From positions 278,351 to 342,350 of the forward strand of contig CAYSSR010000002.1 of assembly GCA_964433755.1 (NCBI GenBank): a DNA stretch of 64,000 bases, written 5' to 3'. Position 1 is the stretch's first letter. Each line of letters starts with the position of its first letter. This DNA is from an uncultured Anaerolineales bacterium. Its GTDB lineage: Bacteria; Chloroflexota; Anaerolineae; UBA7937; B3-Chlor. Positions 16,823-58,055 of the stretch are shown here, in pieces. Position numbers and translations under genes: made by a program. The notes beneath the pieces are model-generated. The model worked only from the letters and a program-made list of their open reading frames with translations. It was not told the origin of the DNA and searched no databases.

Positions 16823-17569
16823 CTAGTGCATTATCCAACCACCGTCGATCTCGATGGTCTGCCCGGTGATGAAATCGCTCTCGTCGCTGGCCAGGAAGCA
16901 TACCAGGTTGCCGATGTCATCGGGCGTGCCCCTACGCTTGATGCACTGTTTCTCGATCACACTCAGGCTGTATGCTTCGGGGTCAGGAAGTGTCTGTTCT
17001 GCGTCCGTGGGGAATGCTCCTGGAGAGATGGCATTCACGTTGATGTTGTCAGGTCCCAGTTCGCGTGCCAAAGTCCGCGTGAAACCCACAACCGCCCCCT
17101 TGGTCGATGCGTAGTGCAAGAAGTTCTCGAAACCCAAGAAGAACGTGATCGAGGCCAGATTCACGATCTTCCCCTTGCCCACCGCCTTCATGTGTGGGGC
17201 GACGGCCTTCGCGCACAGGAAATAGCCCCTGATGTTGACGGCGAAGACTTTGTCCCACTCCTCCCTGCTTATTTCGTCCCAGGGGCGGTAGGGATAGATG
17301 GCGGCGTTATTGACCAGGACGTCGATCCGCCCGAACTCCTCGACCGTCTTGGCAACCATTTGCGCTATGCTCTCTTCGCTGGAGACGTCAGTTTGCACGT
17401 ACAAGCATCTCGGGCCGGCTTTGGAGGCCTTCTCCGCTGCTGTGCGCCCGTACTCCTCGATCTCCGCGATGACCACGTTCGCACCGACCTTCGCCAACCC
17501 TATGGCCTCTGCCTCGCCTAATCCGCGACCGCCTCCGGTCACGATGGCAACCCTTCCCTCGAGTTTCAT
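16823..17569 (-). CDS. SDR family oxidoreductase
   Basis: TGGGRGLG Rossmann motif, NNAA, and a YxxxK region. Confidence 0.85.
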   Translation of the reverse strand: MKLEGRVAIVTGGGRGLGEAEAIGLAKVGANVVIAEIEEYGRTAAEKASKAGPRCLYVQTDVSSEESIAQMVAKTVEEFGRIDVLVNNAAIYPYRPWDEISREEWDKVFAVNIRGYFLCAKAVAPHMKAVGKGKIVNLASITFFLGFENFLHYASTKGAVVGFTRTLARELGPDNINVNAISPGAFPTDAEQTLPDPEAYSLSVIEKQCIKRRGTPDDIGNLVCFLASDESDFITGQTIEIDGGWIMH

Positions 17570-17627
17570 CGCCTATGTCCTTTCCTTGATAGATGCCACT
17601 GACGAATGCTACTGTCCCTGCGCCCGT

Positions 17628-18584
17628 CTACAAATCCCACACCTTGGGATTCGCCACGCACTCGACCCTCTCGCCTCGCAGCACCGCCAACACCGCCTCG
17701 ACCACCTGGACGGACATTCTCTCCAGAGCCTCCCCTGTGCTGGAAGCTATGTGAGGCGACAGGATGATCTTCTCGGACGTCAGTAGCGGTGAGTTCGCGG
17801 CAGGCGGCTCCTCAGAGAACACGTCGAGGGCCGCCCCGGCCAACTTCCCAGTGCGTACTGCGTCGGCCAACGAGGACTCATCCACCACGGCTCCTCTCGA
17901 GGTGTTGACCAGGTACGCAGTCGGCTTCATCATCGCCAGGTGTGCCGGGCCAATCATCCCTCTCGTCTCCTCCGTCAACAGCGCATTGACACTCACGAAG
18001 TCCGAGGCGACGACCAGCGACTCCAGGTCTGCGACGATCTCCACCCCATCAGAGCCAGGTGACTCGGGCACGTAGGGATCATAGGCAAGAACCGACATCC
18101 CCAGGCCCTTCCCGCAGATGTCAGCCACCCGTCGACCCACTCTCCCCAAACCAACAATCCCCAGGGTCTTCTCCCGCAACTCAGTACCGGTCAGTTCGCC
18201 CCGGCGACTAAACTGCCCGTCCCTGACGTACCTGTCGGCCAGGTGAAGGTTCCGCGCAACCGCCAGCATGAGGGCCACCACATACTCCGCAACCGAGTCA
18301 GCATTGGCATCGGGAGTATAGACGACGGGTATCCCCCGCTGAGTGGCACAATCCAAGTCGACGTTGTCGACCCCAGTACCGTGGCGCCCGATCACTTTGA
18401 GCCTTGGGGCACTCTGCATCAACTGCTGACCCACGGGGAAGAGTCGTACGATGATTCCATCCACATCTCCAATGAGAGAATCGGCCGTCTGCCCTGCCGC
18501 CGGACTGACAACCTCCGTCTCTGAGCGAAGCAGTTCCAGCCCTCGTGGATGAATCTGTTCAGTGACAAGCATTCTCAGGGTCAT
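17628..18584 (-). CDS. D-isomer-specific 2-hydroxyacid dehydrogenase (PGDH/GyaR-like)
   Basis: GIVGLGRVGRRVA NAD-binding motif and 2-Hacid_dh catalytic domain pattern. Confidence 0.85.
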   Translation of the reverse strand: MTLRMLVTEQIHPRGLELLRSETEVVSPAAGQTADSLIGDVDGIIVRLFPVGQQLMQSAPRLKVIGRHGTGVDNVDLDCATQRGIPVVYTPDANADSVAEYVVALMLAVARNLHLADRYVRDGQFSRRGELTGTELREKTLGIVGLGRVGRRVADICGKGLGMSVLAYDPYVPESPGSDGVEIVADLESLVVASDFVSVNALLTEETRGMIGPAHLAMMKPTAYLVNTSRGAVVDESSLADAVRTGKLAGAALDVFSEEPPAANSPLLTSEKIILSPHIASSTGEALERMSVQVVEAVLAVLRGERVECVANPKVWDL

Positions 18585-18610
18585 GTGCTGGATACCTATG
18601 ACGTCGTCTC

Positions 18611-19372
18611 TCAGGCTCTCACGCCTTGCAGAAACGCCCTGGACGCACTCCCGAGGAGGCCCTCCGTACCTATGACCAGGTACCGGTAACCTTCCTCCAC
18701 GCGCGCCTTGGCCGAGTCGACGTCACGAACAATGGTCCCCAGCACTCGCCCTCGGTCTCTGATCTCCTGTGCCGCGGCTGCGACTGCCTCTTGAACTCTT
18801 GGATCACCGGTTTGTCCGGGTATGCCGAGCGAGTTGGAAAGGTCCACCGGACCCATGTAGAGGACATCGAGACCCTGCACTTCCAGGATCTCGCCTATGT
18901 TTCTCACTCCCACTATGTTCTCAATGTGAGCAACCACCATGCTCTCCGCGTTGGCGACCCTCACGTAGTCGCTTAGCGGCTCGAGTTGCCCGTAGCCAGA
19001 GGCCCGCACTCCGGCCAGGCCCCGCTGGCCCTCGGGCTGATACTTGACTCCACTCACCGCCGCTACCGCGTCTTCCTTCGTGTTGACGTCTGGCACGTGT
19101 ACTCCTATGGCGCCTGTATCCATGAAGCGCAGTATCGTACTCGGCACGATATTGGGAACCCGAACCAAAGCCGGAATCCCGGATACCTCGGCCGCACGGA
19201 CGAGGTGCTCGACAGTCTCTTCGCCCAGCGGACCGTGCTCCGCGTCCAGTACGACGAAGTCGAATCCGTTATATGCACATATCTCCACCAGTGCTGGGGC
19301 CGCGACGCGCACGAAGGCACCGATCACCGTCTGCCCCTGGGCCAGCTTCTCCTTCAAGGGGTTCTTTCTCAT
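18611..19372 (-). CDS. HpcH/HpaI family aldolase (2-keto-3-deoxy-acid aldolase)
   Basis: GAFVRV...FDFVVLDAEHGP pattern. The start was taken at MRKN (codon 8 of the ORF). Confidence 0.75.
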   Translation of the reverse strand: MRKNPLKEKLAQGQTVIGAFVRVAAPALVEICAYNGFDFVVLDAEHGPLGEETVEHLVRAAEVSGIPALVRVPNIVPSTILRFMDTGAIGVHVPDVNTKEDAVAAVSGVKYQPEGQRGLAGVRASGYGQLEPLSDYVRVANAESMVVAHIENIVGVRNIGEILEVQGLDVLYMGPVDLSNSLGIPGQTGDPRVQEAVAAAAQEIRDRGRVLGTIVRDVDSAKARVEEGYRYLVIGTEGLLGSASRAFLQGVRA

Positions 19373-19393
19373 TACCTCACTCCATCCAACCAA

Positions 19394-20368
19394 CTATGGG
19401 ATCACCTTTGACTGTCGCAGGCGCTGCAACTGTCGAGCTATCTCCTCATTCCTCGCCGCTTCCACCTCGGTTGGGTCTCGACGTGACCAGTCGTAGAAGC
19501 CCCTGCCCGTCTTGACGCCCAACTCGCCGCTGGCTACCGAGTCGGCCAACAGTGAATTGGGTGACTCGGAGTGCTCGAGCTCCGGTAGCAGATAGCGATG
19601 AATAGAGAGAATCAGATCAAGGCCAACAAGGTCCATATTCTCCAAGGGCCCGATGGCTGGCGAACGTAGCCCGAAGGTTAGCTTGGCCACTGTGTCGACG
19701 TCTGCCGGATCCGCTATTCCTCTCTCCACAATCGAAATCGCCTCACGCCACAGGGCGTGAAGCATCCTGTTGCCGATGAAGCCAGGCACGTCTTTGTAGA
19801 CTGTGACCGGCACTTTGTCGATCCGCCGAACGAGGTCGCTGGCCACTTGCACGGCCTGCTCGGATGTCTGTGCACCCTTCACAACCTCCACCAAGGGCAT
19901 CAGCTCTGGCGGGTTCCAGAAGTGGGTGCCCACAACGAGATCAGGCCTGCCCGTAGCACGACCAAGCTCGGTGATGCTCAGACCTGACGTCTGAGTCGCC
20001 AGGATCGTATGACGGGGGGCGGCCGCATCGACAATGGACAGCAGTTCACATTTGAGGGCTAGATCCTCCCCGACTGATTCCAGTGCGAAATCGCACTTCT
20101 CAGCGGCTCCTGCCAGGTCTGTAGAGTAGCTTATCCTGCCAGCGATACGAGCAGCATCGTCCTCAGACAGCCCTAACATCGCAGACAGAGTACCCAGGCT
20201 CTTCAACACTCTATCCGCGCCACGCTTCAGGCTGTCCTCGCTACGACCCCAGACATCGACGTGGAACCCCACCCGCGCGCAGGCGACGGCCGTCCCGGCG
20301 CCCATCACCCCTGGCCCCAGGATGAGAATCCGTTTCAGCTTGTCCAGATCTGGCGAGTCCGCCGTCAT
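19394..20368 (-). CDS. 3-hydroxyacyl-CoA dehydrogenase family protein (L-gulonate 3-dehydrogenase-like)
   Basis: ILILGPGVMGAG N-terminal NAD fold and a 3HCDH C-terminal domain. Confidence 0.75.
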   Translation of the reverse strand: MTADSPDLDKLKRILILGPGVMGAGTAVACARVGFHVDVWGRSEDSLKRGADRVLKSLGTLSAMLGLSEDDAARIAGRISYSTDLAGAAEKCDFALESVGEDLALKCELLSIVDAAAPRHTILATQTSGLSITELGRATGRPDLVVGTHFWNPPELMPLVEVVKGAQTSEQAVQVASDLVRRIDKVPVTVYKDVPGFIGNRMLHALWREAISIVERGIADPADVDTVAKLTFGLRSPAIGPLENMDLVGLDLILSIHRYLLPELEHSESPNSLLADSVASGELGVKTGRGFYDWSRRDPTEVEAARNEEIARQLQRLRQSKVIP

Positions 20369-31049: not shown

Positions 31050-32357
31050 CTACCCTGTTACGAAGGGTACGAAGGTCCTAAGATCCAGACCACCAGTGGT
31101 AAGGACGAATCGGGCGGTCACCGTTTTGTCGGAGTCCACGATGACACTTATCGACTCGCTGTCGCCAGCTACGTCACCATCCCATCCAGCGAACTCGTAG
31201 CCGTCCACGGGTACCGCAGTAAGCATCACCTCGGTGCCCGACTCACACCCGTCCACCACGCAGGCCAGGGGCTCGGAGAGGATGGCGCCGCCACCTGTGG
31301 GTGCTACGCTGGGGTAGAGGTGGTAGGAGGGCAAAGGTACCTCGACGATGGGAACGTAGGCGTAGTCGTCGATCCCACACTCACCGTACGCTATCTTGAA
31401 CCAACCGTTCTCGCCCCAACCTCTGCCCCAGCTATTCTTCGCGATCCAGTAGCCCTCCTCATCGTCGTAACCAACCACGGTGACAGCGTGGCCACCTTCC
31501 AGCGTGCCTGTGGTGTGCCGGTAGACGCCTCCCTCGTAAGTCCAGAAATCCGAGTAGACCAGCATGGTCGCCTCGAAAGGTCCACTATCAGCCAGTGCCT
31601 GCTTCATATCGTCCGAGTTGGTCAGCCCGACCCACTCAGTGAGGCGTGTGACCCGATTCTGCCAGTCGGGACACAACCTGCACGTCTGATCAGACGTGTC
31701 GTAGGGGTAGCATGGCTCCTCAGTGATGCCTACGTCACGAGCGGCATTCAGCGCTGCAAAGGGGGTCCAGCCGGTAGCGCAGCTACTGCCTGAGTTACAG
31801 AAGAACAGGTGCGCCTCCGAAAGGTCGGGGTTGAGAGCGGGACTGCCCAATGCAATCTCCAGACGGGACTCGATGGCCCCGACGGTGGCGAAGGCCACGC
31901 AGGATCCGCAGGCACTCTGGTTCCGGATGCCAGTCGTCCAGTTTTCACCATCCACGTCCCGCCAATCGAGCCTGGCCGGATAGCCGTAGCTGGCAGAGAG
32001 CTTCACGCCAGCCTCGCTGGCCTGCTCCTTCTCCCACTCCGTCACCTCCATCGGCACACCCAGCAGCCCAACCAGGTCTTCAGGACCCGATTCCAGCAGC
32101 GGGGGCTCGGTGGAGGGCAAAGAGTCTTCGTCGCCGAGTGAGATGGTCTGGGTGACGGTGGTGCCGACAGTATCCGTCGGGGTAGACGAGGCGAAGAGGG
32201 TAGTGGTAATGGTTTCCGGTTGCCAGAGCGTATCCTCGGGGCACCCGGTCGGCTCAGGCGACTCCGTCTGCGCCATAGCAGGAACCTGCAAGACCACACT
32301 GACGCCTGTAGCCAGCAGAACCGCCACGACTAGAACTAGAGTTGACTTGATTCTCAC
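31050..32357 (-). CDS. Secreted papain-family (C1A) cysteine protease with C-terminal InlB-B-repeat-like domain
   Basis: Signal peptide. Catalytic Cys in CGSCVAF, and His/Asn in GGHAV...NSWG. The C-terminal repeat is GYEFAGWDGD. Confidence 0.85.
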   Translation of the reverse strand: MRIKSTLVLVVAVLLATGVSVVLQVPAMAQTESPEPTGCPEDTLWQPETITTTLFASSTPTDTVGTTVTQTISLGDEDSLPSTEPPLLESGPEDLVGLLGVPMEVTEWEKEQASEAGVKLSASYGYPARLDWRDVDGENWTTGIRNQSACGSCVAFATVGAIESRLEIALGSPALNPDLSEAHLFFCNSGSSCATGWTPFAALNAARDVGITEEPCYPYDTSDQTCRLCPDWQNRVTRLTEWVGLTNSDDMKQALADSGPFEATMLVYSDFWTYEGGVYRHTTGTLEGGHAVTVVGYDDEEGYWIAKNSWGRGWGENGWFKIAYGECGIDDYAYVPIVEVPLPSYHLYPSVAPTGGGAILSEPLACVVDGCESGTEVMLTAVPVDGYEFAGWDGDVAGDSESISVIVDSDKTVTARFVLTTGGLDLRTFVPFVTG

Positions 32358-32391
32358 TTTCGCCCCACCCCCGTCGAGACAATGGTGGGGA

Positions 32392-32440
32392 CGAAAGAAA
32401 ACGCGCTCTCAACCACGGTGCCAAAGGGAAAAAGAGCGCG
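32392..32440 (-). terminator. Intrinsic terminator/attenuator in the leader between riboswitch A and the protease gene (CGCGCUCU...AGAGCGCG + UUUUCUUUCG)
   Basis: A perfect 8-bp stem with a 23-nt loop and a U tract on the minus strand. Confidence 0.5.
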
Positions 32441-32454
32441 CTGAATAGCTAGCT

Positions 32455-32550
32455 TTTCTTCGGAGGCAACCCGGCCACCATAGTTCGCTCAGAACCGTAG
32501 GCCCGTGGCTTTGCGTCCCCACCTTTCGATGGGTTTGCCTTTATCACCGA
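32455..32550 (-). promoter_or_regulatory. c-di-GMP-I (GEMM-I) riboswitch aptamer A, in the leader of the C1 protease gene
   Basis: Minus-strand RNA reads GGUGAUAAAGGCAAACCCAUCGAAAGGUGGGGACGCAAAGCCACGGGCCUACGG...GGCCGGGUUGCCUCCGAAG. It matches the GEMM-I core (GGCAAACC, GAAA-capped P2, GGGACGCAAAGCC, a long P3, and P1 closure). Confidence 0.8.
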
Positions 32551-32618: not shown

Positions 32619-33896
32619 TCACGCTTGAGCTCTCGTCGTCAACGGCACGTGGCTCTGCTGCAGCGATCCACTGGTCACGGAGAGGATCACCTGCACATCG
32701 ACAGACATGCCCCCGGCGTCTACGGTTATCGTCCCTGCGTGAATCCCTTCAGCGGTCGGGAAGCCCTCCAAGTAGACCACCACGGTCGATTGGCCGGATC
32801 CGGCAGCCTGGCTCAGCTTGATCCAGTCTTGATCGGCGCTGGCAGTCCAGTTGGCCCAGGTGTCGATGTGCACCCCGTTCCCGGCCGGCACCGTGGGCGC
32901 AGAACCCTGCATAGAGAGAAACACCAACGAATCGGGCGACACCCTCAAAGGCAGATCGAGGTAGATGCTGTCGCGGCTCTCGAGCACGGTCGAGCCCCGC
33001 CTGATCTGAGCAAGCACCGTAGCGGGTGATCCATCGCCGGTGGACAACGTCCATGCCTTGTCAGAGGAGAAGGGTTCCCAGGCCGACCAAGTCTCGCCTG
33101 CGTTGCGGAACCTCATCTCCGTCGCCCAGTCCTGGCCATACACGTACAGGTCAACGGAGAGGCTGGCCGTTGACCACGCCTCTCCGTCGACCACCACAGG
33201 GTAGAAGGCATTTCCTTGTACGCCGTTCCGAGCCCCAAGATCAAGGGTCCAGTAGTGGTAGTAATACGCGCTGCCAGAGAAGGCATAGCCCCCTCCCGCC
33301 TCGCGGAAATCCACACTCAGCATGTTGTCCCTGTGACCGGGGCTATTCATCCAGGCATCGACCACCGCCCCAGACGACGTGTACCCCGCTGCGACGTTCT
33401 CGCCAAGATACGTATGGTTCAGGTACCCTGCATTCTCGATCCTGGTGACCCAGTCTGGTTCGCCAGAGCACGTGTGGGCGAAGCAGTCGTGGTTGGCCAT
33501 CCAGTCGCTGTGAAACTGCGCAGAGTCCATCAACTCTGAGGCCGCCTTCAGGGGCGGCAGCCCCCGACTCAGCCGTCTCACGTTTGTGAGACGGACCAGT
33601 GCGTGCCCCTGAGGCTCGTCGGGCGCCCCTGCACCCGCACTGACACTGACCAAACCTTCGTCCGAGTCACTGAGAGTGGATTCCGTGATGGAAGTGGTTC
33701 CGTCGGCGCCAATGAACCCGATGGCAACCGGGTTCCCGTCTCCATCGGCGCCTCCCACCGTGGCCAAGCTGGCCGACGCCAGCAAGAGCAGCAGGAGCGT
33801 ACAGGCAACAATACGATTCCTGGAGACTTCTCTACCTATCCGCAACATCCCGTTACTCGATAACATCTTGCGTTCGCTACGCTGTGCCAATCCCAT
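32619..33896 (-). CDS. Secreted CAP/SCP (YkwD-like) domain protein with C-terminal Ig-like/beta-sandwich domains
   Basis: Signal peptide (the true start is probably an internal ATG, MLRIG...). The SPGHRDNMLSVDFREAGGGYA motif is CAP-type. Confidence 0.75.
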   Translation of the reverse strand: MGLAQRSERKMLSSNGMLRIGREVSRNRIVACTLLLLLLASASLATVGGADGDGNPVAIGFIGADGTTSITESTLSDSDEGLVSVSAGAGAPDEPQGHALVRLTNVRRLSRGLPPLKAASELMDSAQFHSDWMANHDCFAHTCSGEPDWVTRIENAGYLNHTYLGENVAAGYTSSGAVVDAWMNSPGHRDNMLSVDFREAGGGYAFSGSAYYYHYWTLDLGARNGVQGNAFYPVVVDGEAWSTASLSVDLYVYGQDWATEMRFRNAGETWSAWEPFSSDKAWTLSTGDGSPATVLAQIRRGSTVLESRDSIYLDLPLRVSPDSLVFLSMQGSAPTVPAGNGVHIDTWANWTASADQDWIKLSQAAGSGQSTVVVYLEGFPTAEGIHAGTITVDAGGMSVDVQVILSVTSGSLQQSHVPLTTRAQA

Positions 33897-33959: not shown

Positions 33960-34055
33960 TCCTTCGGAGGCAACCCGGCGACCGTAGTTCGACTGAACCG
34001 TAGGCCCGTGGCTTTGCGTCCCCACCTTTCGATGGGTTTGCCTTTGTCACCGCTC
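33960..34055 (-). promoter_or_regulatory. c-di-GMP-I (GEMM-I) riboswitch aptamer B, in the leader of the CAP-protein gene
   Basis: ~93% identical to aptamer A over ~90 nt, with the same GEMM-I core. Confidence 0.8.
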
Positions 34056-34240: not shown

Positions 34241-34269
34241 TTGACACCACCCGGACGGTTGTCTATAAT
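34241..34269 (+). promoter_or_regulatory. Consensus sigma70 promoter TTGACA-17-TATAAT driving riboswitch C and the PEP-CTERM operon
   Basis: The sequence ccTTGACAccacccggacggttgtcTATAATtc is a perfect consensus. Confidence 0.7.
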
Positions 34270-34299
34270 TCGTGATGCCTCTACATCGACTGATCAACG

Positions 34300-34395
34300 C
34301 AGGGTAACGAAAAGGCAACCTTCCTGCGAGGGAAGGAACGCAAAGCCTCGGATCTAGGCTGAACGCGCTCTGACGCCCAGATAGCCGAGCTGCCG
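34300..34395 (+). promoter_or_regulatory. GEMM-I-class (c-di-GMP-I or related cyclic dinucleotide) riboswitch aptamer C
   Basis: AAAAGGCAACC-UUCCUGCGAGGGAAGG (GNRA-capped P2)-AACGCAAAGCC-long P3-GCUGCC. It deviates from consensus at GCAA(A)CC and GGAACGC, so the call is less certain than A and B. Confidence 0.55.
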
Positions 34396-34425
34396 AACTA
34401 CTCAGGCGGCTCGGCGTTTTTTGTT
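34384..34425 (+). terminator. Intrinsic terminator (GCCGAGCUGCC...GGCGGCUCGGC + GUUUUUUGUU) forming the expression platform of riboswitch C
   Basis: 11-bp stem plus a U tract. The 5' arm is shared with the aptamer P3/P1 3' side, which implies a ligand-dependent antitermination (ON) switch. Confidence 0.7.
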
Positions 34426-34549: not shown

Positions 34550-36130
34550 ATGCTTACTGGAAATGGTCGCATCTCATCGTGGGCGCGCGGCGTCAGTGTT
34601 GTCACTGTCGCCCTTCTTATGCTGATCGCACCCGGGTTGGCGCAGGCTCAGGGACCCGGGGCATGGGAGGAATACTCCGGCAACCCCATCATCGATCCCC
34701 CGGAAGAGGACGCCTACTACCCCAGCGTGCTCTACGACTCTTCCCCGACACCCTTTAGTGGCCACGGGGAAGCAAGCGCCTTCAAGATGTGGCACGACAA
34801 CGGTCTCCAGTACAGAGTCTCCGACGACGGTCTGTCGTGGACCAAAGTAGGAGACATGGATGACGGCACCATCACCGGCCTGCCCGCTGGAGAGGTGCGC
34901 CATCCTCTCGTGGAGTACTACGCGGCTGGGTTCACTGGCAGGAACGATGGCGACAACCCCAGCTCCGCTACCATGTACTATCGTCTCTGGTTCTGGCACC
35001 TGGGCCAGGACCTGTACAGTGTAGCTGCCATCCACTACGCCGAGTCGCCCGATGGAAAGGCCTGGTACAACGTGCAGCCGCTCCAGAACGGCACAGTGCC
35101 CATCGTCACGGGCACCTGGCCTGACTGGAATAGAGGATCGTACGGACCTTGCGATGTCCTCTTCTTTCCGGGAGCCAGCAACTCCGGAACTGACTGGACC
35201 TTCTGGATGTACTATGACGGCACCACCGGCGGAGACGAAGCCATAGGTCTCGGCTTCTCGGCCGATGGCGTGACCTGGACCGGGTACGATCCCGGCGGAG
35301 ACGGCCAGGCTGATGCCGTGATGAACGGCACCTACGTCTCCGGAGACTGGGACTACAACTACCTATCGCGCGCCACCATCTGGAGAGAGGCACCCGGCGA
35401 CTACCGCATGTGGTACAGCGCCGGCGTCGACACCATGAACCATGGCCTCGGATACGCCACCTCCTCCGACGGACTGAGCTGGACACGAGACCCCAACAAC
35501 CCCATCTTCTACAAGGACGATACCGGCTATCCTGGGTATCCCTGGCGCGAGAACCGTAGCTACACCCCCGTGGTGTTGCGTGCCGGGAACCTCTGGTTCA
35601 TGTGGTATTCCGGCGAGAACGGCGGGGGCAAGTGCATCGGTGTAGCCTATTCCAGCGCAGGACTTCCGGAGCAACTCCTGGAGATCGAGAAGAGCGCCCA
35701 TCCAGCGCAGATCGCTGTGGGTGAGAAGACTCTGTTCACCATCACCGTGACCAACGCCTCGATGGACGCCGCCGATGACGTAGTGGTCACGGACGAGATC
35801 GACGCGGGCCTGGAGATCGTGAACGTCCAGACCTCGAAGGGATTGATCTCCACGGCTGGGCAACAAGTGACGGTGGACGTGGGGTCCATGGCCCCAGATG
35901 AGACCGTGGTGATCGAGATTCGGGTGCTGGCGCTGGAGATCGGACAAATCGAGAACGTAGCGGTCGTGACCACGCCGCGAGTCGTCGCCGACGCTGGAGC
36001 GACGCTCGACGTGGTCAGCGCAGCAGCCGTGGAAGAGGAGTTCGTGCCCGAGCCGGGAAGCCTGCTTCTGATGGGCAGCGGCCTGCTCACCATGGCTGGA
36101 TACGCCATCAAGCGAGGTCGAAGACACTAG
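34550..36130 (+). CDS. Secreted BNR/Asp-box beta-propeller (glycoside-hydrolase-like) + DUF11 domain protein with PEP-CTERM sorting signal
   Basis: Signal peptide. Repeated SDDGLSWT / SADGVTWT / SSDGLSWT Asp-boxes and a DUF11 region (TITVTNASMDAADDVVVTDEID). The C-terminus VPEPGSLLLMGSGLLTMAGYAIKRGRRH is PEP-CTERM. Confidence 0.8.
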   Translation: MLTGNGRISSWARGVSVVTVALLMLIAPGLAQAQGPGAWEEYSGNPIIDPPEEDAYYPSVLYDSSPTPFSGHGEASAFKMWHDNGLQYRVSDDGLSWTKVGDMDDGTITGLPAGEVRHPLVEYYAAGFTGRNDGDNPSSATMYYRLWFWHLGQDLYSVAAIHYAESPDGKAWYNVQPLQNGTVPIVTGTWPDWNRGSYGPCDVLFFPGASNSGTDWTFWMYYDGTTGGDEAIGLGFSADGVTWTGYDPGGDGQADAVMNGTYVSGDWDYNYLSRATIWREAPGDYRMWYSAGVDTMNHGLGYATSSDGLSWTRDPNNPIFYKDDTGYPGYPWRENRSYTPVVLRAGNLWFMWYSGENGGGKCIGVAYSSAGLPEQLLEIEKSAHPAQIAVGEKTLFTITVTNASMDAADDVVVTDEIDAGLEIVNVQTSKGLISTAGQQVTVDVGSMAPDETVVIEIRVLALEIGQIENVAVVTTPRVVADAGATLDVVSAAAVEEEFVPEPGSLLLMGSGLLTMAGYAIKRGRRH

Positions 36131-36184
36131 GTCTGTTTCTGTTCGCGCCGGGAGGCACCTGAGGATGCTGGCAAGGAGAAAGAC

Positions 36185-37756
36185 GTGAGTCGAGGCCATT
36201 TCACACTGATTGCTGTGTTGCTCCCCACACTTCTGCTCGGGCTGGCCGCGTCGGGCGCCGCCTTCGCCGACGGTACGACGCATTACGTGAGTCCCGGACA
36301 AGACATCCAGGGGATCATCGACACCGCCAGTCCAGGGGACACTATCCAGTTCGCCCCAGGCACCTACACGCTGGCCTCGACCCTCTGCGTGAGCAAACCG
36401 CTTACTCTCACCTCTGCCGACCCCTACGCAGAAGTCAAACCCCTTCTCGACGGTGGAGGGAGTCTGGAGACCATCGTCTACGTGAACTCGGACAGCGTGG
36501 TCATCGATGGGCTGGAGATCGCCAATGGCACCGGCGATCTCGTCCTCCAGAGCGGGGCGTACGCAGAAACCGTGGTCCGGAACAACACTGTCCACGATTC
36601 GACCGGAGACGAGGGCATCCAGTTGAAGCAGTGCACGGATTGCGTTGTCGAATTCAACCTCATCTACGACGTCGCTCAGGATGGCATCTGCATAGCGGAC
36701 GCCTCGCACGACTGCCTGATCAGCAACAACGAGATCTACAACTCGTACAGCGAGAACGCCGTCATCTACGTCTACGATTCATACAACATCACTGTGGAAA
36801 GCAACTACATCCACGATACGCAGGGAGCCAACGGCATCACGTTCTACAAGAACTACGGCGCCACCCACACCATCACCAACAACCTCATCGTCAGCAACGA
36901 GTGGCGGGGTGGCAAGCACTGCTACGACGAAGCCGACGGAAATGCGGTGAGCATCTACAAGCCCCGGACGTCCAGCACCTACGTGGTCACTCACAATACC
37001 ATCGATGACAACACGCCGGCCAACGGTTGCGCCCAGCCGGGAAACGCCATCTACGTCAACGATGGCTCCGGGGTGGGCTTCAGCACCGACGTGCAGAGCA
37101 ACATCGTGACCAATCACAGCGGCTACGGCATCCGCACCTACTGTGAGGCTCTGGTGGGCTATGGCTGCAACGACCTGTGGCAGAATGCTCTCGGCGCCAC
37201 GGACGGCAACCCCGTAGATGCCGGCGGCAACATCTCCGCTGATCCCCTCTTCGATACCGACCACTCCTTGCTGGAAGGAAGCCCCGCCATCGACATGGCC
37301 TGCGACGGGAAAGACATGGGGGTCGACTTCTCGTTGTGGGGATACGAGCCCGCACTCCAGATCACGAAGGCCGTGAATCCGCTCTCGGTGGAAGAGGGAG
37401 CGGGGGCGACGTTCACCATCACTGTAACGAACGACGGCCCTGGGGCGGCACAGGACGTGGTGCTCACCGACGAGATAGACGCAGACCTTCAGATCTCCTC
37501 CGTGGAGACTACTCAGGGCACCCCACTCCAGGTAGGCCAGACGATCACTGTCGATATCGGGATGCTCGAGCGTAACGAAACCGTGACCGTCACCATCGCC
37601 GTGACAGCAACCGAGATGGGCACCCAGGTCAACGTCGCCCATCTGCGCTCCCTCACAGTCGAGGGGATGGATTCCAACAGTGTGCCGCTGGAGGTAGGGC
37701 CGCCCGCCCAACCACCACCCAACTTCTACTTTCCGCTCGTGCTCTGTGCTTTCTGA
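36185..37756 (+). CDS. Secreted right-handed parallel beta-helix (pectate-lyase-fold, PbH1 repeats) + DUF11 domain protein
   Basis: Signal peptide. Repeated NNT/NNE...I.N/D beta-helix rungs and a DUF11 region (TFTITVTNDGPGAAQDVVLTDEID). It has a hydrophobic C-terminus but no PEP motif. Confidence 0.7.
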   Translation: MSRGHFTLIAVLLPTLLLGLAASGAAFADGTTHYVSPGQDIQGIIDTASPGDTIQFAPGTYTLASTLCVSKPLTLTSADPYAEVKPLLDGGGSLETIVYVNSDSVVIDGLEIANGTGDLVLQSGAYAETVVRNNTVHDSTGDEGIQLKQCTDCVVEFNLIYDVAQDGICIADASHDCLISNNEIYNSYSENAVIYVYDSYNITVESNYIHDTQGANGITFYKNYGATHTITNNLIVSNEWRGGKHCYDEADGNAVSIYKPRTSSTYVVTHNTIDDNTPANGCAQPGNAIYVNDGSGVGFSTDVQSNIVTNHSGYGIRTYCEALVGYGCNDLWQNALGATDGNPVDAGGNISADPLFDTDHSLLEGSPAIDMACDGKDMGVDFSLWGYEPALQITKAVNPLSVEEGAGATFTITVTNDGPGAAQDVVLTDEIDADLQISSVETTQGTPLQVGQTITVDIGMLERNETVTVTIAVTATEMGTQVNVAHLRSLTVEGMDSNSVPLEVGPPAQPPPNFYFPLVLCAF

Positions 37757-37873
37757 GGGCTACTCTCGCGGCCCCTCAGACCATGACTTGCCTCTTCGGC
37801 AAGCCAGAATAGGAAATGGTGGTGACTCAATAGTTGAAGGCGACGACTCGAGACATCGGGAGGAGGAAAGACA

Positions 37874-39451
37874 ATGAAGCATAGACAGGGTAGGGTCTCA
37901 CTGCGCACAGCGGGTGCTTGTATGGCGATCGTCATCTCCCTTCTGCTGCTCGTTCCAGGGCTGGCGCAGGCCCAGGGACCCGGCACCTGGGAAGAGTACT
38001 CGGGCAACCCCATCATCGGTCCCACCACCGACGCCGACGGTTTGTATCCCTCCATACTCTACGATCCGTCCCCGACCCCCTTCGGTGGTCACGGGGAAGC
38101 GAGCCACTTCAAGATGTGGCACAACATGAATCTCCAGTATCGAACCTCAGACGATGGCATCTCGTGGACCAAAGTAGGCGATATGCTGGACGGCACCATC
38201 ACAGGCTTGCCAGCAGGCCACGTGAGTCACCCGTTGGTGGAGTACTATGCAGACGGGTTCCCGGGTCGCAACGATGGCACCAATCCCAGCGCAAGCACGA
38301 TGTACTACCGGCTGTGGTTCTGGCACACCAGCTACCTCTACACCGTTATGTCTACCCACTACGCCGAATCAGCCGATGGCAAGGCCTGGTACAACCTGCA
38401 GCCCCTTCAGAATGGCGCTGTGCCCATCGTCACGGGGGTGTATGGCGATTGGAACCGAGGGTCGTACGGACCTTGCGACGTGCTCTATGACCCTGGTGCC
38501 AGCAACAGCGGCACCGACTGGACCTTCCGGCTGTACTACGATGGCACTACGGGCGGTGACGAAGCTGTAGGACTTGGCTTCTCGGCAGACGGAGTCACCT
38601 GGACCGGCTACGATCCCGACAATGATGGAGACGCCGATGACGTCATGAACGGCACCTACGTGGCCGGGGACTGGGACTACAACTACGTATCGCGCGCGAC
38701 CGTCTGGAGAGAGGGTCCAGGGGACTACCGCATGTGGTACAGCGCCGGCCCCGGGGAGATGCGCCAGGGCATAGGCTACGCCACGTCTCCCGACGGGTTG
38801 ACCTGGACCCGCGACCCCGGCAACCCCATCTTCCACAAGACCGATACCGGATATCCTGGCTATCCCTGGCGACAGAACTGGTCTTACACGCCCATGGTCT
38901 TGCGCGCCGAGAACCTCTGGCTGATGTGGTACTCTGGTGAGGGCGGAGAAGGGCAGTGCCTGGGTCTCGCCTACGCCAGCGCGGGACTGCCGATCACACT
39001 GATAGAGATCGAGAAGAGCGCCCACCCGCCCGAGGTGAGCGTGGGGGAGGAAGCCCTGTTCAACATCACCGTGACTAACGCCTCGCTGGACATCGTTGAT
39101 GACGTGATGGTCAAAGACAAGATCGACGCCAGCCTGGAGATATTGGACGTTCAGACCACCAAGGGATCGATCTCCACAACCGGGCAATTGGTGACGGTGA
39201 ACATAGGGGCCATGGACCCAGACGAGAGCGTGGAGATAACCATTCGAGTGCTGGCTACAGAACCAGGGACGATCGAGAACGTGGCCACCGTGGTCGCTCC
39301 GCGCGTCGAAGATACCGCCGAAGCCGTTCTCACCGTGATTCCCGCTGTCGCCGAGGAGTATGTGCCCGAGGCTGGGTCGCTGCTGCTGCTGGCCAGCGGA
39401 CTCGCCAGCATGGTCGGATTCGCCCGCGGCCGCCGCGGAAGGGCCAGATAA
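37874..39451 (+). CDS. Paralog of 34550..36130: BNR-propeller + DUF11 protein with PEP-CTERM-like signal (VPEAGSLLLLASGLASMVGFARGRRGRAR)
   Basis: ~65-70% identical to the first copy, with the same domain order. Confidence 0.8.
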   Translation: MKHRQGRVSLRTAGACMAIVISLLLLVPGLAQAQGPGTWEEYSGNPIIGPTTDADGLYPSILYDPSPTPFGGHGEASHFKMWHNMNLQYRTSDDGISWTKVGDMLDGTITGLPAGHVSHPLVEYYADGFPGRNDGTNPSASTMYYRLWFWHTSYLYTVMSTHYAESADGKAWYNLQPLQNGAVPIVTGVYGDWNRGSYGPCDVLYDPGASNSGTDWTFRLYYDGTTGGDEAVGLGFSADGVTWTGYDPDNDGDADDVMNGTYVAGDWDYNYVSRATVWREGPGDYRMWYSAGPGEMRQGIGYATSPDGLTWTRDPGNPIFHKTDTGYPGYPWRQNWSYTPMVLRAENLWLMWYSGEGGEGQCLGLAYASAGLPITLIEIEKSAHPPEVSVGEEALFNITVTNASLDIVDDVMVKDKIDASLEILDVQTTKGSISTTGQLVTVNIGAMDPDESVEITIRVLATEPGTIENVATVVAPRVEDTAEAVLTVIPAVAEEYVPEAGSLLLLASGLASMVGFARGRRGRAR

Positions 39452-57981: not shown

Positions 57982-58055
57982 GGTGGACGTAGCTCAACTG
58001 GCAGAGCACTGGACTGTGGATCCTGAGGTTGCGGGTTCGATCCCCGTCGTCCACC
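57982..58055 (+). tRNA. tRNA-His (anticodon GTG) with encoded G-1. No encoded CCA.
   Basis: Manual fold: 7-bp acceptor stem plus G-1, D arm GCUC/GAGC, anticodon loop CUGUGGA, T arm GCGGG-UUCGAUC-CCCGU, discriminator C. Confidence 0.85.

Follow-up and report, generated by a model that had tools for sequence, protein, structure and literature searches.

We describe here a stretch of 64,000 nucleotides (hereafter the window) from contig CAYSSR010000002.1 of an uncultured Anaerolineales bacterium (Chloroflexota), and within it a locus of three forward-strand genes, called A, B, and C, whose products may be surface-displayed proteins controlled by a cyclic di-GMP (c-di-GMP) riboswitch. The open reading frames (ORFs) lie at 34550-36130 (A, 526 amino acids), 36185-37756 (B, 523 amino acids), and 37874-39451 (C, 525 amino acids), and their public names are solely 'uncharacterized repeat protein (TIGR01451 family)'. 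In A, a signal peptide (residues 1-34) is followed by a beta-propeller (residues 35-372; 34652-35665), a CLIPPER/DUF11 domain (residues 377-476; 35678-35977), and a PEP-CTERM tail (residues 499-526; 36044-36127). B consists of a signal peptide (residues 1-28), a Pel9A/PL6-like right-handed beta-helix (residues 30-385; 36272-37339), a CLIPPER/DUF11 domain (residues 391-498; 37355-37678), a proline-rich linker, and the short conserved tail NFYFPLVLCAF (37721-37753), whereas C repeats the order seen in A, with a propeller (37976-38989), a CLIPPER/DUF11 domain (39002-39316), and a PEA-variant PEP-CTERM-like tail (39362-39448). An initial annotation, made from the sequence alone, had called A and C paralogues and had described a shared layout of signal peptide, head, DUF11, and tail. 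A and C are indeed 72% identical over 502 amino acids, and the layout is upheld by the ORFs, by Pfam, and by a direct reading of the N-termini, each of which shows a basic n-region, a hydrophobic core, and AQA↓QG or AFA↓DG.

The regulatory region at 34241-34422, which lay outside the interval of the initial annotation, is essential to the interpretation of these genes. It opens with a sigma-70-type promoter (34241-34269, forward strand; TTGACA-17-TATAAT, 12/12 matches to the consensus), whose -35 hexamer is invariant across five related loci and whose -10 hexamer reads TATAAT in four of them and TATAGT in locus L002. The promoter is followed by a c-di-GMP-I aptamer (34304-34397, forward strand; RF01051, 52.0 bits). 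Two further RF01051 matches lie on the reverse strand, at 33966-34052 (82.9 bits, E=7e-17) in the leader of a CAP-domain protein gene and at 32462-32549 (83.9 bits) in the leader of a C1 protease gene, and one aptamer is thus located before each of the three transcription units. All three matches exceed the gathering score of 35 and span model positions 1-87. The A-leader aptamer scores far below the other two, and by E-value its top model is that of the GGC variant; we rejected this class because the aptamer is without the variant G, stays below the variant cutoff, and passes RF01051. It keeps the A of the canonical ACGCAAAGCC instead of the G that defines the GGC variant, and this A and the GG in AAAGGCAA hint at c-di-GMP, as opposed to cGAMP or some other molecule, as the ligand.

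Orthologous RF01051 matches were found in six related loci. The A-leader aptamer is conserved in L002, L004, L005, L084, and L085, the protease-leader aptamer in L002, L004, L007, and L166, and the whole trio in L002, L004/L085, and L005/L084. In L007 and L166, riboswitches were detected solely on the protease/CAP side, even at E<=0.1, and distant propeller/beta-helix pairs gave no RF01051 match.

In the A leader, the aptamer runs into an intrinsic terminator (34384-34422, forward strand), in which an 11-bp GC-rich stem (34384-34394 pairing with 34405-34415) is followed by a G and six T residues, and whose 5' arm overlaps the aptamer-paired nucleotides 34385-34391. The minimum free energy fold forms the terminator, and blocking of the 3' arm leads to a two-hairpin aptamer fold that is 19.4 kcal/mol less stable. 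In L002, an A-U to G-C compensatory change preserves both alternative helices. As the terminator arm is shared with the 3' helix of the aptamer, the leader is laid out like an ON switch in which the ligand brings about anti-termination, and we predict that it acts as a c-di-GMP ON switch for A-B-C. The A-B and B-C gaps measure only 54 and 117 bp, a Shine-Dalgarno (SD) sequence precedes each gene, and pattern scans for promoter-like and terminator-like sites between A, B, and C detected none, making it likely that the three genes are co-transcribed.

Turning to the proteins, the element common to all three is DUF11, whose presence in each gene was claimed initially and is confirmed by PF01345, which matches once per protein with 64.2 (A), 66.0 (B), and 58.0 (C) bits against a gathering score of 24.6. 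TIGR01451 matches A (33.1) and B (31.3) above its cutoff of 24, and C (21.7) slightly below it. DUF11 has been renamed CLIPPER in Pfam and is a CnaA-like immunoglobulin (Ig) domain with an intramolecular isopeptide bond that typically forms the stalk of surface proteins, which are laid out as signal peptide, adhesion domain, stalk, and sorting domain (PMC12617251). A profile of 14 DUF11 domains matched the crystal structure 9IFR (E=1.5e-5), and its invariant or nearly invariant columns coincide with the isopeptide residues (Lys715, Asn806) and the catalytic Asp of that structure. A and C share the triad K381/D415/N469, which in B is K395/D429/N483, and an isopeptide bond would accordingly be expected in the stalk domains of A, B, and C. 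The DUF11 of B and those of the A/C clade are reciprocal best matches outside their own orthologues (76-84 bits versus at most 62 for others in the match set), which fits a spread of the module within the locus. Together with the stalk role described for CLIPPER (PMC12617251), this agrees with the earlier view of DUF11 as a common display module. The strong PF01345 matches, the aligned Lys/Asp/Asn triad, and the context of signal peptide, head, and sorting tail liken these proteins to CLIPPER fibrillar adhesins and 9IFR; in contrast to such adhesins, A, B, and C have one copy of the domain instead of tandem arrays and carry enzyme-like heads, and their isopeptide bond is predicted from the triad.

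The head of B matches the Pfam family Beta_helix (PF13229, 74.9 bits), and a precomputed match to the Pel9A-like family PF22842 exists for P0121, which is identical to B, and for the orthologue P0125. The AlphaFold2 (AF2) model of B has a predicted local distance difference test score (pLDDT) of 84.1 overall, above 90 over residues 31-380 and below 50 in the tail. Among its best domain-level fold matches (template-modelling scores, TM-scores, of 0.44-0.64) are Pel9A (1ru4, 0.56) and a Paenibacillus alginate lyase (6kfn, 0.64), together with lyases of polysaccharide lyase (PL) family 6, chondroitinase B, a glycoside hydrolase (GH) family 87 alpha-1,3-glucanase, the AlgG epimerase, RbmB, and phage tailspike depolymerases, all of which are polysaccharide-active right-handed beta-helices. 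The pectate-lyase-like beta-helix proposed initially is therefore supported by PF13229 as well as by Pel9A, 6kfn, and the PL6 lyases. At the level of sequence, the link to CAZy families is marginal (PL6, E=1.8e-4). Residues D118, D142, D166, E183, and H210 are invariant in the family of B, and the last four sit on consecutive coils, consistent with an in-line active site. Judging by the model, B is probably a polysaccharide lyase or hydrolase. With the helices of PL9, PL6, GH87, AlgG, RbmB, and the tailspikes it shares the fold, PF13229, and acidic residues plus a His on successive coils; unlike known beta-helix lyases, it combines marginal CAZy sequence matches with a CLIPPER fusion and an odd short tail. 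The catalytic residues that characterise the reference families are a Lys or Arg base with calcium ligands in PL6 and PL9 and an Asp triad in GH28 and GH87.

The heads of A and C belong to a different fold. The AF2 model of A (pLDDT 87.3) comprises five four-stranded blades that lead into a beta-sandwich and, at the C-terminus, a helix. The profile built from 69 members of the family matches the GH130 structures 7fip (E=1.5e-5), 9fj8, 5a7v, 3qc2, and 1vkd and the GH43 structure 4qqs, and the good Foldseek superpositions of A are GH130 enzymes with a root-mean-square deviation (rmsd) of 4.5-5.9 Å and target-normalised TM-scores of 0.68 (9gph), 0.64 (7fip), 0.63 (4udk), and 0.61 (1vkd). The initial annotation had instead seen in these heads BNR (Asp-box) propellers. 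Four S-x-D-G-x-x-W hairpins in each of A and C speak for such a sialidase-type identity, as do the lowest Foldseek E-values for A, which belong to a Micromonospora sialidase with a propeller plus Ig layout; yet this sialidase superposes with a TM-score of about 0.35 and an rmsd of about 14 Å, the model has five blades and not six, the hairpin falls one residue short of the canonical Asp-box (S-x-D-x-G-x-T-W), neither BNR nor BNR_2 (Pfam) matches A or C at E<=1, and the profile matches are to GH130 and GH43 only. We therefore rejected the sialidase/BNR identity, and the hairpins are the blade motif of the beta-fructosidase superfamily, not BNR repeats.

Taken together, the profile and fold matches, the simultaneous matches of distant relatives (Lachnospiraceae, Hungatella) to GH32N, GH130, and GH43 models, and a faint precomputed match to PF22847 (Glyco_hydro_43_rel) establish the propeller as a five-bladed member of the beta-fructosidase superfamily that falls within no curated family. 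This family has more than 1000 relatives in bacteria and archaea and is itself uncurated; homologues score 21.5-26.9 with PF04041, against a cutoff of 26. A and C have the five-bladed fold and profile matches in common with GH130 (7fip, 9gph, 4udk, 1vkd, 5a7v), GH43, GH32, and GH117, and the blade hairpin Y-A-x-S-x-D-G-x-x-W is a further likeness to GH130 and the wider superfamily. They differ from GH130 in having neither a PF04041 match nor a D-P motif, in being secreted and surface-anchored, and in an invariant set of their own, H118, R145, D223, and R333, which is accompanied by the nearly invariant D63, D202, D268, R274, and R336. These residues look like a charged pocket, which might serve catalysis or binding only.

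In GH130, GH43, and GH32 enzymes, an inner strand carries a D-P motif whose Asp is the catalytic residue (EDPR in GH130, as seen in the GH130 alignments). In the family of A and C, the inner strands of the five blades read Y-Y-P, (R/Y)-H-(P/A), Y-G-P, Y-(V/L)-S, and Y-(C/T)-P, with no acidic residue before Pro, and the D-P motif is absent from all five blades in 69 of 69 sequences. Alignment of hidden Markov models (HMMs) to GH130 structures, either directly or via the Lachnospiraceae and Hungatella bridges, is accurate to the blade with ambiguous register, and the D-P test is register-free. The propeller may consequently bind instead of cleave, and the same observation, with the lack of any match to glycoside-hydrolase Pfam models, speaks for an alternative in which all heads are non-catalytic and A, B, and C resemble short fibrillar adhesins, with a binding head, one CLIPPER stalk, and an anchor, that serve attachment, filament bundling, or aggregation at high c-di-GMP. 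Such an arrangement would keep the regulation and display proposed here and dispense with cleavage; its layout matches that of CLIPPER proteins (PMC12617251), and control of adhesins by c-di-GMP riboswitches is established in Clostridioides difficile and Bacillus thuringiensis. We nevertheless consider it rather improbable, since every good structural match of B is an enzyme, the B family has invariant Asp, Glu, and His residues on consecutive coils, the invariant His/Arg/Asp/Arg set of the propeller is typical of an active or anion-binding site, and fibrillar adhesins usually have many stalk domains where these proteins have one.

An association of the two head types recurs outside the locus. 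A propeller homologue is present in 9 of the 28 metagenome loci whose beta-helix is at least 45% identical to B, mostly as the adjacent gene, and in the distant locus L003 a propeller gene immediately follows the beta-helix gene. L115 and L123 have the two matches side by side in one reading frame, P0093 is a propeller/beta-helix fusion with 38% identity between its helix and B (E=4e-37), and in several Actinomycetota loci a weak beta-helix stands directly after the propeller. The association is thus recurrent, although not obligatory. In lineages without DUF11, propeller and beta-helix proteins both end in one unannotated module of 45 amino acids without a Pfam match, and with DUF11 taking that place here, the pair tends to share its C-terminal module. 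This 45-residue module, D-x-D-L-L-F-H-F-K-T-Q-E-L...G-T-D-x-V-x-I-V-P, was seen in the propeller proteins P0022-P0063 and in the beta-helix proteins P0127-P0161.

At their extreme C-termini, A (FVPEPGSLLLMGSGLLTMAGYAIKRGRRH) and C (YVPEAGSLLLLASGLASMVGFARGRRGRAR, with PEA replacing PEP) carry tripartite tails of motif, transmembrane helix, and basic cluster, and AF2 places a helix at residues 502-525 of A. The tail of A passes both PF07589 (22.9 versus 20.7) and TIGR02595 (18.9 versus 16). The tail of C scores 12.0 with PF07589 and has no TIGR02595 match, so that the initial assignment of PEP/PEA-CTERM tails to both proteins is upheld by the model cutoffs for A; for C it is not supported, the score being below the cutoff by which the initial annotation itself would have judged it refuted, although the motif, transmembrane, and Arg-rich layout is retained. 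The consensus of the A/C clade ends EEEFVPE[AP]GSL, transmembrane helix, RRR, and PEA is commoner than PEP within it, indicating that the low scores of C reflect a clade-typical variant and not decay. The tails are probably processed by an exosortase. The passage of A through both cutoffs, the motif, helix, and Arg-rich end of A and C, and the occurrence of two such tails at one locus resemble PEP-CTERM/exosortase systems; unlike in the classical systems, the clade mostly has VPEA for VPEP, C is below the cutoff, and the lineage is Chloroflexota.

Alternatively, the tails of A and C could be simple transmembrane anchors that undergo no exosortase cleavage, with PEP/PEA being a conserved juxtamembrane element that plays no part in sorting. 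The outer membrane that usually accompanies classical PEP-CTERM systems may be missing in Anaerolineae, no exosortase was seen in the 64 kb, C fails both PEP-CTERM HMMs, and our search for literature on PEP-CTERM/exosortase systems in Chloroflexi yielded nothing relevant. Against a plain anchor, the clade shows strict conservation of motif, helix, and Arg cluster together with the acidic stretch EEEFVPE[AP]GS, A passes two independent curated cutoffs, and related propeller proteins bear other exosortase-family signals (IPTL-CTERM); we therefore regard it as unlikely. Propeller heads elsewhere carry IPTL-CTERM (34.5 and 24.9 bits versus 20.5), type IX secretion system (T9SS; 32.1 versus 27), or, by eye, LPxTG-like tails, and such swapped tails are typical of a surface-displayed 'choice-of-anchor' head. 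A further, unnamed tail, [AV]-[VI]-x-L-x-S-F-x-A-R followed by about 10 residues, a transmembrane helix, and an Arg-rich end, occurs on propeller homologues (P0025, P0033, P0037, P0039, P0073, and P0086) and on an FG-GAP-like protein (L007 9890-11161), and has no NCBIfam match.

B lacks a tail of the A/C type, as had been noted initially, having neither a transmembrane helix nor a basic cluster at its C-terminus. The accompanying idea that its end is a degenerate sorting signal did not hold. All B orthologues retain Y[FL]PL[VA]L 3-11 residues from the end, with variable flanks and no transmembrane helix, and related motifs close the two unrelated proteins encoded on the opposite strand: the CAP protein ends ...SHVPLTTRAQA (32619-32654, reverse strand) and the protease ...TFVPFVTG (31050-31076, reverse strand), and their orthologues keep HVPL[TML] and F[VIL]PF[VA], respectively, down to 54-58% identity. 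In the ORFs of the window and the fetched loci, the motif [FYH][VILF]P[LF][VALTM] occurs within the last 14 residues of 1.9% of 1089 ORFs, compared with 0.09% of internal windows, the 21 matches including many orthologous ones. Independent cases end ...LVYLPLVLRNR, ...YTYLPLVLRQK, and ...VFLPLVFRGY, and the distant consensus is h-Y-L-P-L-V-h-[RK], located 0-11 residues before the stop without a transmembrane helix. The tag is also seen on unrelated secreted proteins at L023 7743-9455, L108 4341-5399, L117 7-1056, and L118 7078-10014. We rejected a truncated PEP-CTERM as explanation of the B tail because the same motif stands at the end of the protease and the CAP protein, which are unrelated to B, and of other families. 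This YLPLV-type tag, which we found neither in Pfam or NCBIfam models nor in the literature, is a candidate sorting or processing tag of Chloroflexota. The initial interpretation taken as a whole, with BNR propellers on A and C, a DUF11 display scaffold, true PEP-CTERM signals on both, and a possibly degenerate one on B, gains from A being above the PEP-CTERM cutoffs, but C falls under them and the B tail is conserved by itself and common to unrelated proteins; together with the propeller results, this makes it very improbable.

The two minus-strand genes encode a secreted CAP/YkwD-domain protein (32619-33896; PF00188, 71.5 bits; TIGR02909; a weak BACON_2 match corresponding to a BACON-like C-terminal module) and a secreted papain-family (C1) cysteine protease (31050-32357; PF00112, 168.7 bits; PF18998, 40.1 bits, an InlB B-repeat-like module). 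All five proteins of the locus follow one plan, namely a signal peptide, a functional head, an Ig-like or beta-sandwich module, and a short C-terminal tag, and all five would be under c-di-GMP control. The CAP leader has a promoter-like site at 34117-34089 and a conserved downstream terminator hairpin, and the protease leader a conserved terminator and an SD-sequestering hairpin downstream of the aptamer; in both leaders the terminator does not overlap the aptamer, and folding of the two gave no convincing anti-terminator. These features are compatible with OFF switches. In the protease leader (32357-32462, reverse strand), CUUUCGUCCCCACC is base-paired in the conserved hairpin with the SD region GGUGGGGCGAAAG, and the C-rich arm of this hairpin is also complementary, over 10 nt and without a mismatch, to the aptamer segment GGUGGGGACG, which suggests a three-way translational switch. 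Tandem same-strand c-di-GMP-I riboswitches precede the protease in L004 (7054-7141 and 7411-7497), L085 (3977-4064 and 4334-4420), L007 (5570-5656 and 5932-6019), and L166 (7456-7542 and 7772-7858). No CAP match lies between those of L004 and L085, where the CAP riboswitch appears to have been left behind.

Comparable circuits have been described in Firmicutes, where the C. difficile surface proteins CD2831 and CD3246 and the protease ZmpI/PPEP-1, as well as CbpA of B. thuringiensis, are controlled by c-di-GMP riboswitches (PMC6200980, PMC7423583, PMC6447587). The likeness lies in Ig-stalk, C-terminally sorted surface proteins under such riboswitches and in a secreted protease with a riboswitch of its own. 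The present locus differs in belonging to Chloroflexota, in its PEP-CTERM-type anchor in place of LPXTG/sortase, in having three riboswitches that are all of class I, in propeller and beta-helix heads in place of collagen-binding ones, and in a papain-family protease in place of a zinc metalloprotease; the opposite polarity of the protease, as in the adhesin/protease logic of C. difficile, is here only suspected. Our search for literature on c-di-GMP riboswitches in Chloroflexi found nothing relevant. A broader proposal would join a new Chloroflexota-specific YLPLV-type sorting, processing, or retention signal existing beside PEP-CTERM with a three-riboswitch c-di-GMP circuit of opposite polarity, and we put it forward as a tentative and, in its entirety, doubtful possibility. 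If true, anchored propeller/beta-helix proteins would be turned ON and the protease and CAP protein OFF, paralleling the logic of the C. difficile adhesins and protease, and this in a filamentous, deep-branching lineage that is uncultured and whose cargo would be an uncurated propeller family of the 'choice-of-anchor' kind.

With moderate confidence, we interpret A, B, and C as a c-di-GMP-induced set of surface-displayed, glycan-directed proteins, each built from a head, a CLIPPER stalk, and a C-terminal tag. Transcription would start at the consensus sigma-70 promoter and enter the c-di-GMP-I riboswitch; without c-di-GMP the terminator would form, and with c-di-GMP bound the aptamer would keep the shared arm and allow read-through into A-B-C. 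After Sec export, A and C would be held at the surface by their PEP-CTERM-type tails, probably after processing by an exosortase, and B, the C1 protease, and the CAP protein would carry the other short tag, of the Y[FL]PL[VA]L type. Each head would be presented on a single CLIPPER Ig-like domain with the Lys/Asp/Asn triad for a stabilising isopeptide bond. The lyase- or hydrolase-like beta-helix of B would act on a polymer that the propellers of A and C bind or process, the likeliest target being the extracellular matrix polysaccharide of the cell itself or of a neighbour in a sessile, high-c-di-GMP state.

Several results weigh against this interpretation. On the side of the heads, residues 1-370 of A and of C are matched at E<=1 by no glycoside-hydrolase Pfam model, PF04041 included, the D-P motif is missing throughout the propeller family, and the genes around distant propeller homologues, in archaea and elsewhere, are uninformative on the substrate; most propeller loci have no adjacent beta-helix, and L007 and L166, the closest single-copy relatives, have no beta-helix gene. 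With regard to regulation and anchoring, the A-leader aptamer is the weakest of the three and is ranked first by the GGC variant model, spacing and pattern scans are the sole basis for co-transcription, the tail of C is below the PEP-CTERM cutoffs, and no exosortase candidate was noticed in the ORF list of the 64-kb window.

In sediments, digesters, and activated sludge, Anaerolineae are abundant filamentous bacteria that give shape to flocs and granules, and to our knowledge next to nothing is known about the assembly or remodelling of their surface. The locus offers a testable module in which an RNA sensor of c-di-GMP is expected to switch on anchored, glycan-directed proteins. It would extend riboswitch-controlled surface display from Firmicutes to Chloroflexota, and its propeller family, across its relatives, comes with four or more anchoring systems, whether confirmed or likely. 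Surface proteins of the head-stalk-anchor type and riboswitch-controlled surface display are known kinds, and the YLPLV-type tag and the uncurated propeller family may be new.

The nearest loci come from metagenome-assembled genomes of uncultured Anaerolineae/Anaerolineales, L004 at 86% and L005 at 88% identity, and the entire neighbourhood is retained in relatives of approximately 80-90% identity such as L002, where the order is NifU-NifS-Rrf2, C1 peptidase, CAP protein, the divergent genes A, B, and C, and a thiamine ATP-binding cassette (ABC) transporter/thiamine pyrophosphokinase operon. In L007 and L166 (about 70% identity), the protease and CAP genes are accompanied by one propeller-DUF11 gene and then by an unrelated FG-GAP-like protein; because these loci have a single propeller gene and no beta-helix, the acquisition of B and the duplication behind A and C are confined to a sub-clade. 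Purifying selection acts on both paralogues, with dN/dS ratios of 0.07-0.16 in the propeller and 0.29-0.39 in DUF11. Elsewhere in the window, a thiamine pyrophosphate (TPP) riboswitch (RF00059; 43163-43276, reverse strand; 61.2 bits) heads the operon for thiamine pyrophosphokinase, a thiamine-binding protein, and an NMT1 ABC transporter; it is kept in L002, L007, L083, L085, and L166 and is ordinary. A tRNA gene (RF00005, 64.7 bits) lies at 57983-58055 on the forward strand. Past the thiamine operon, L002 encodes V4R, Roadblock/LC7, small Ras/Arf-like GTPase, and PatA_N proteins (17163-19838) that form an MglA/MglB-like polarity module; this module is seen in relatives, and the probable syntenic region of the window lies at about 43.6-46 kb.

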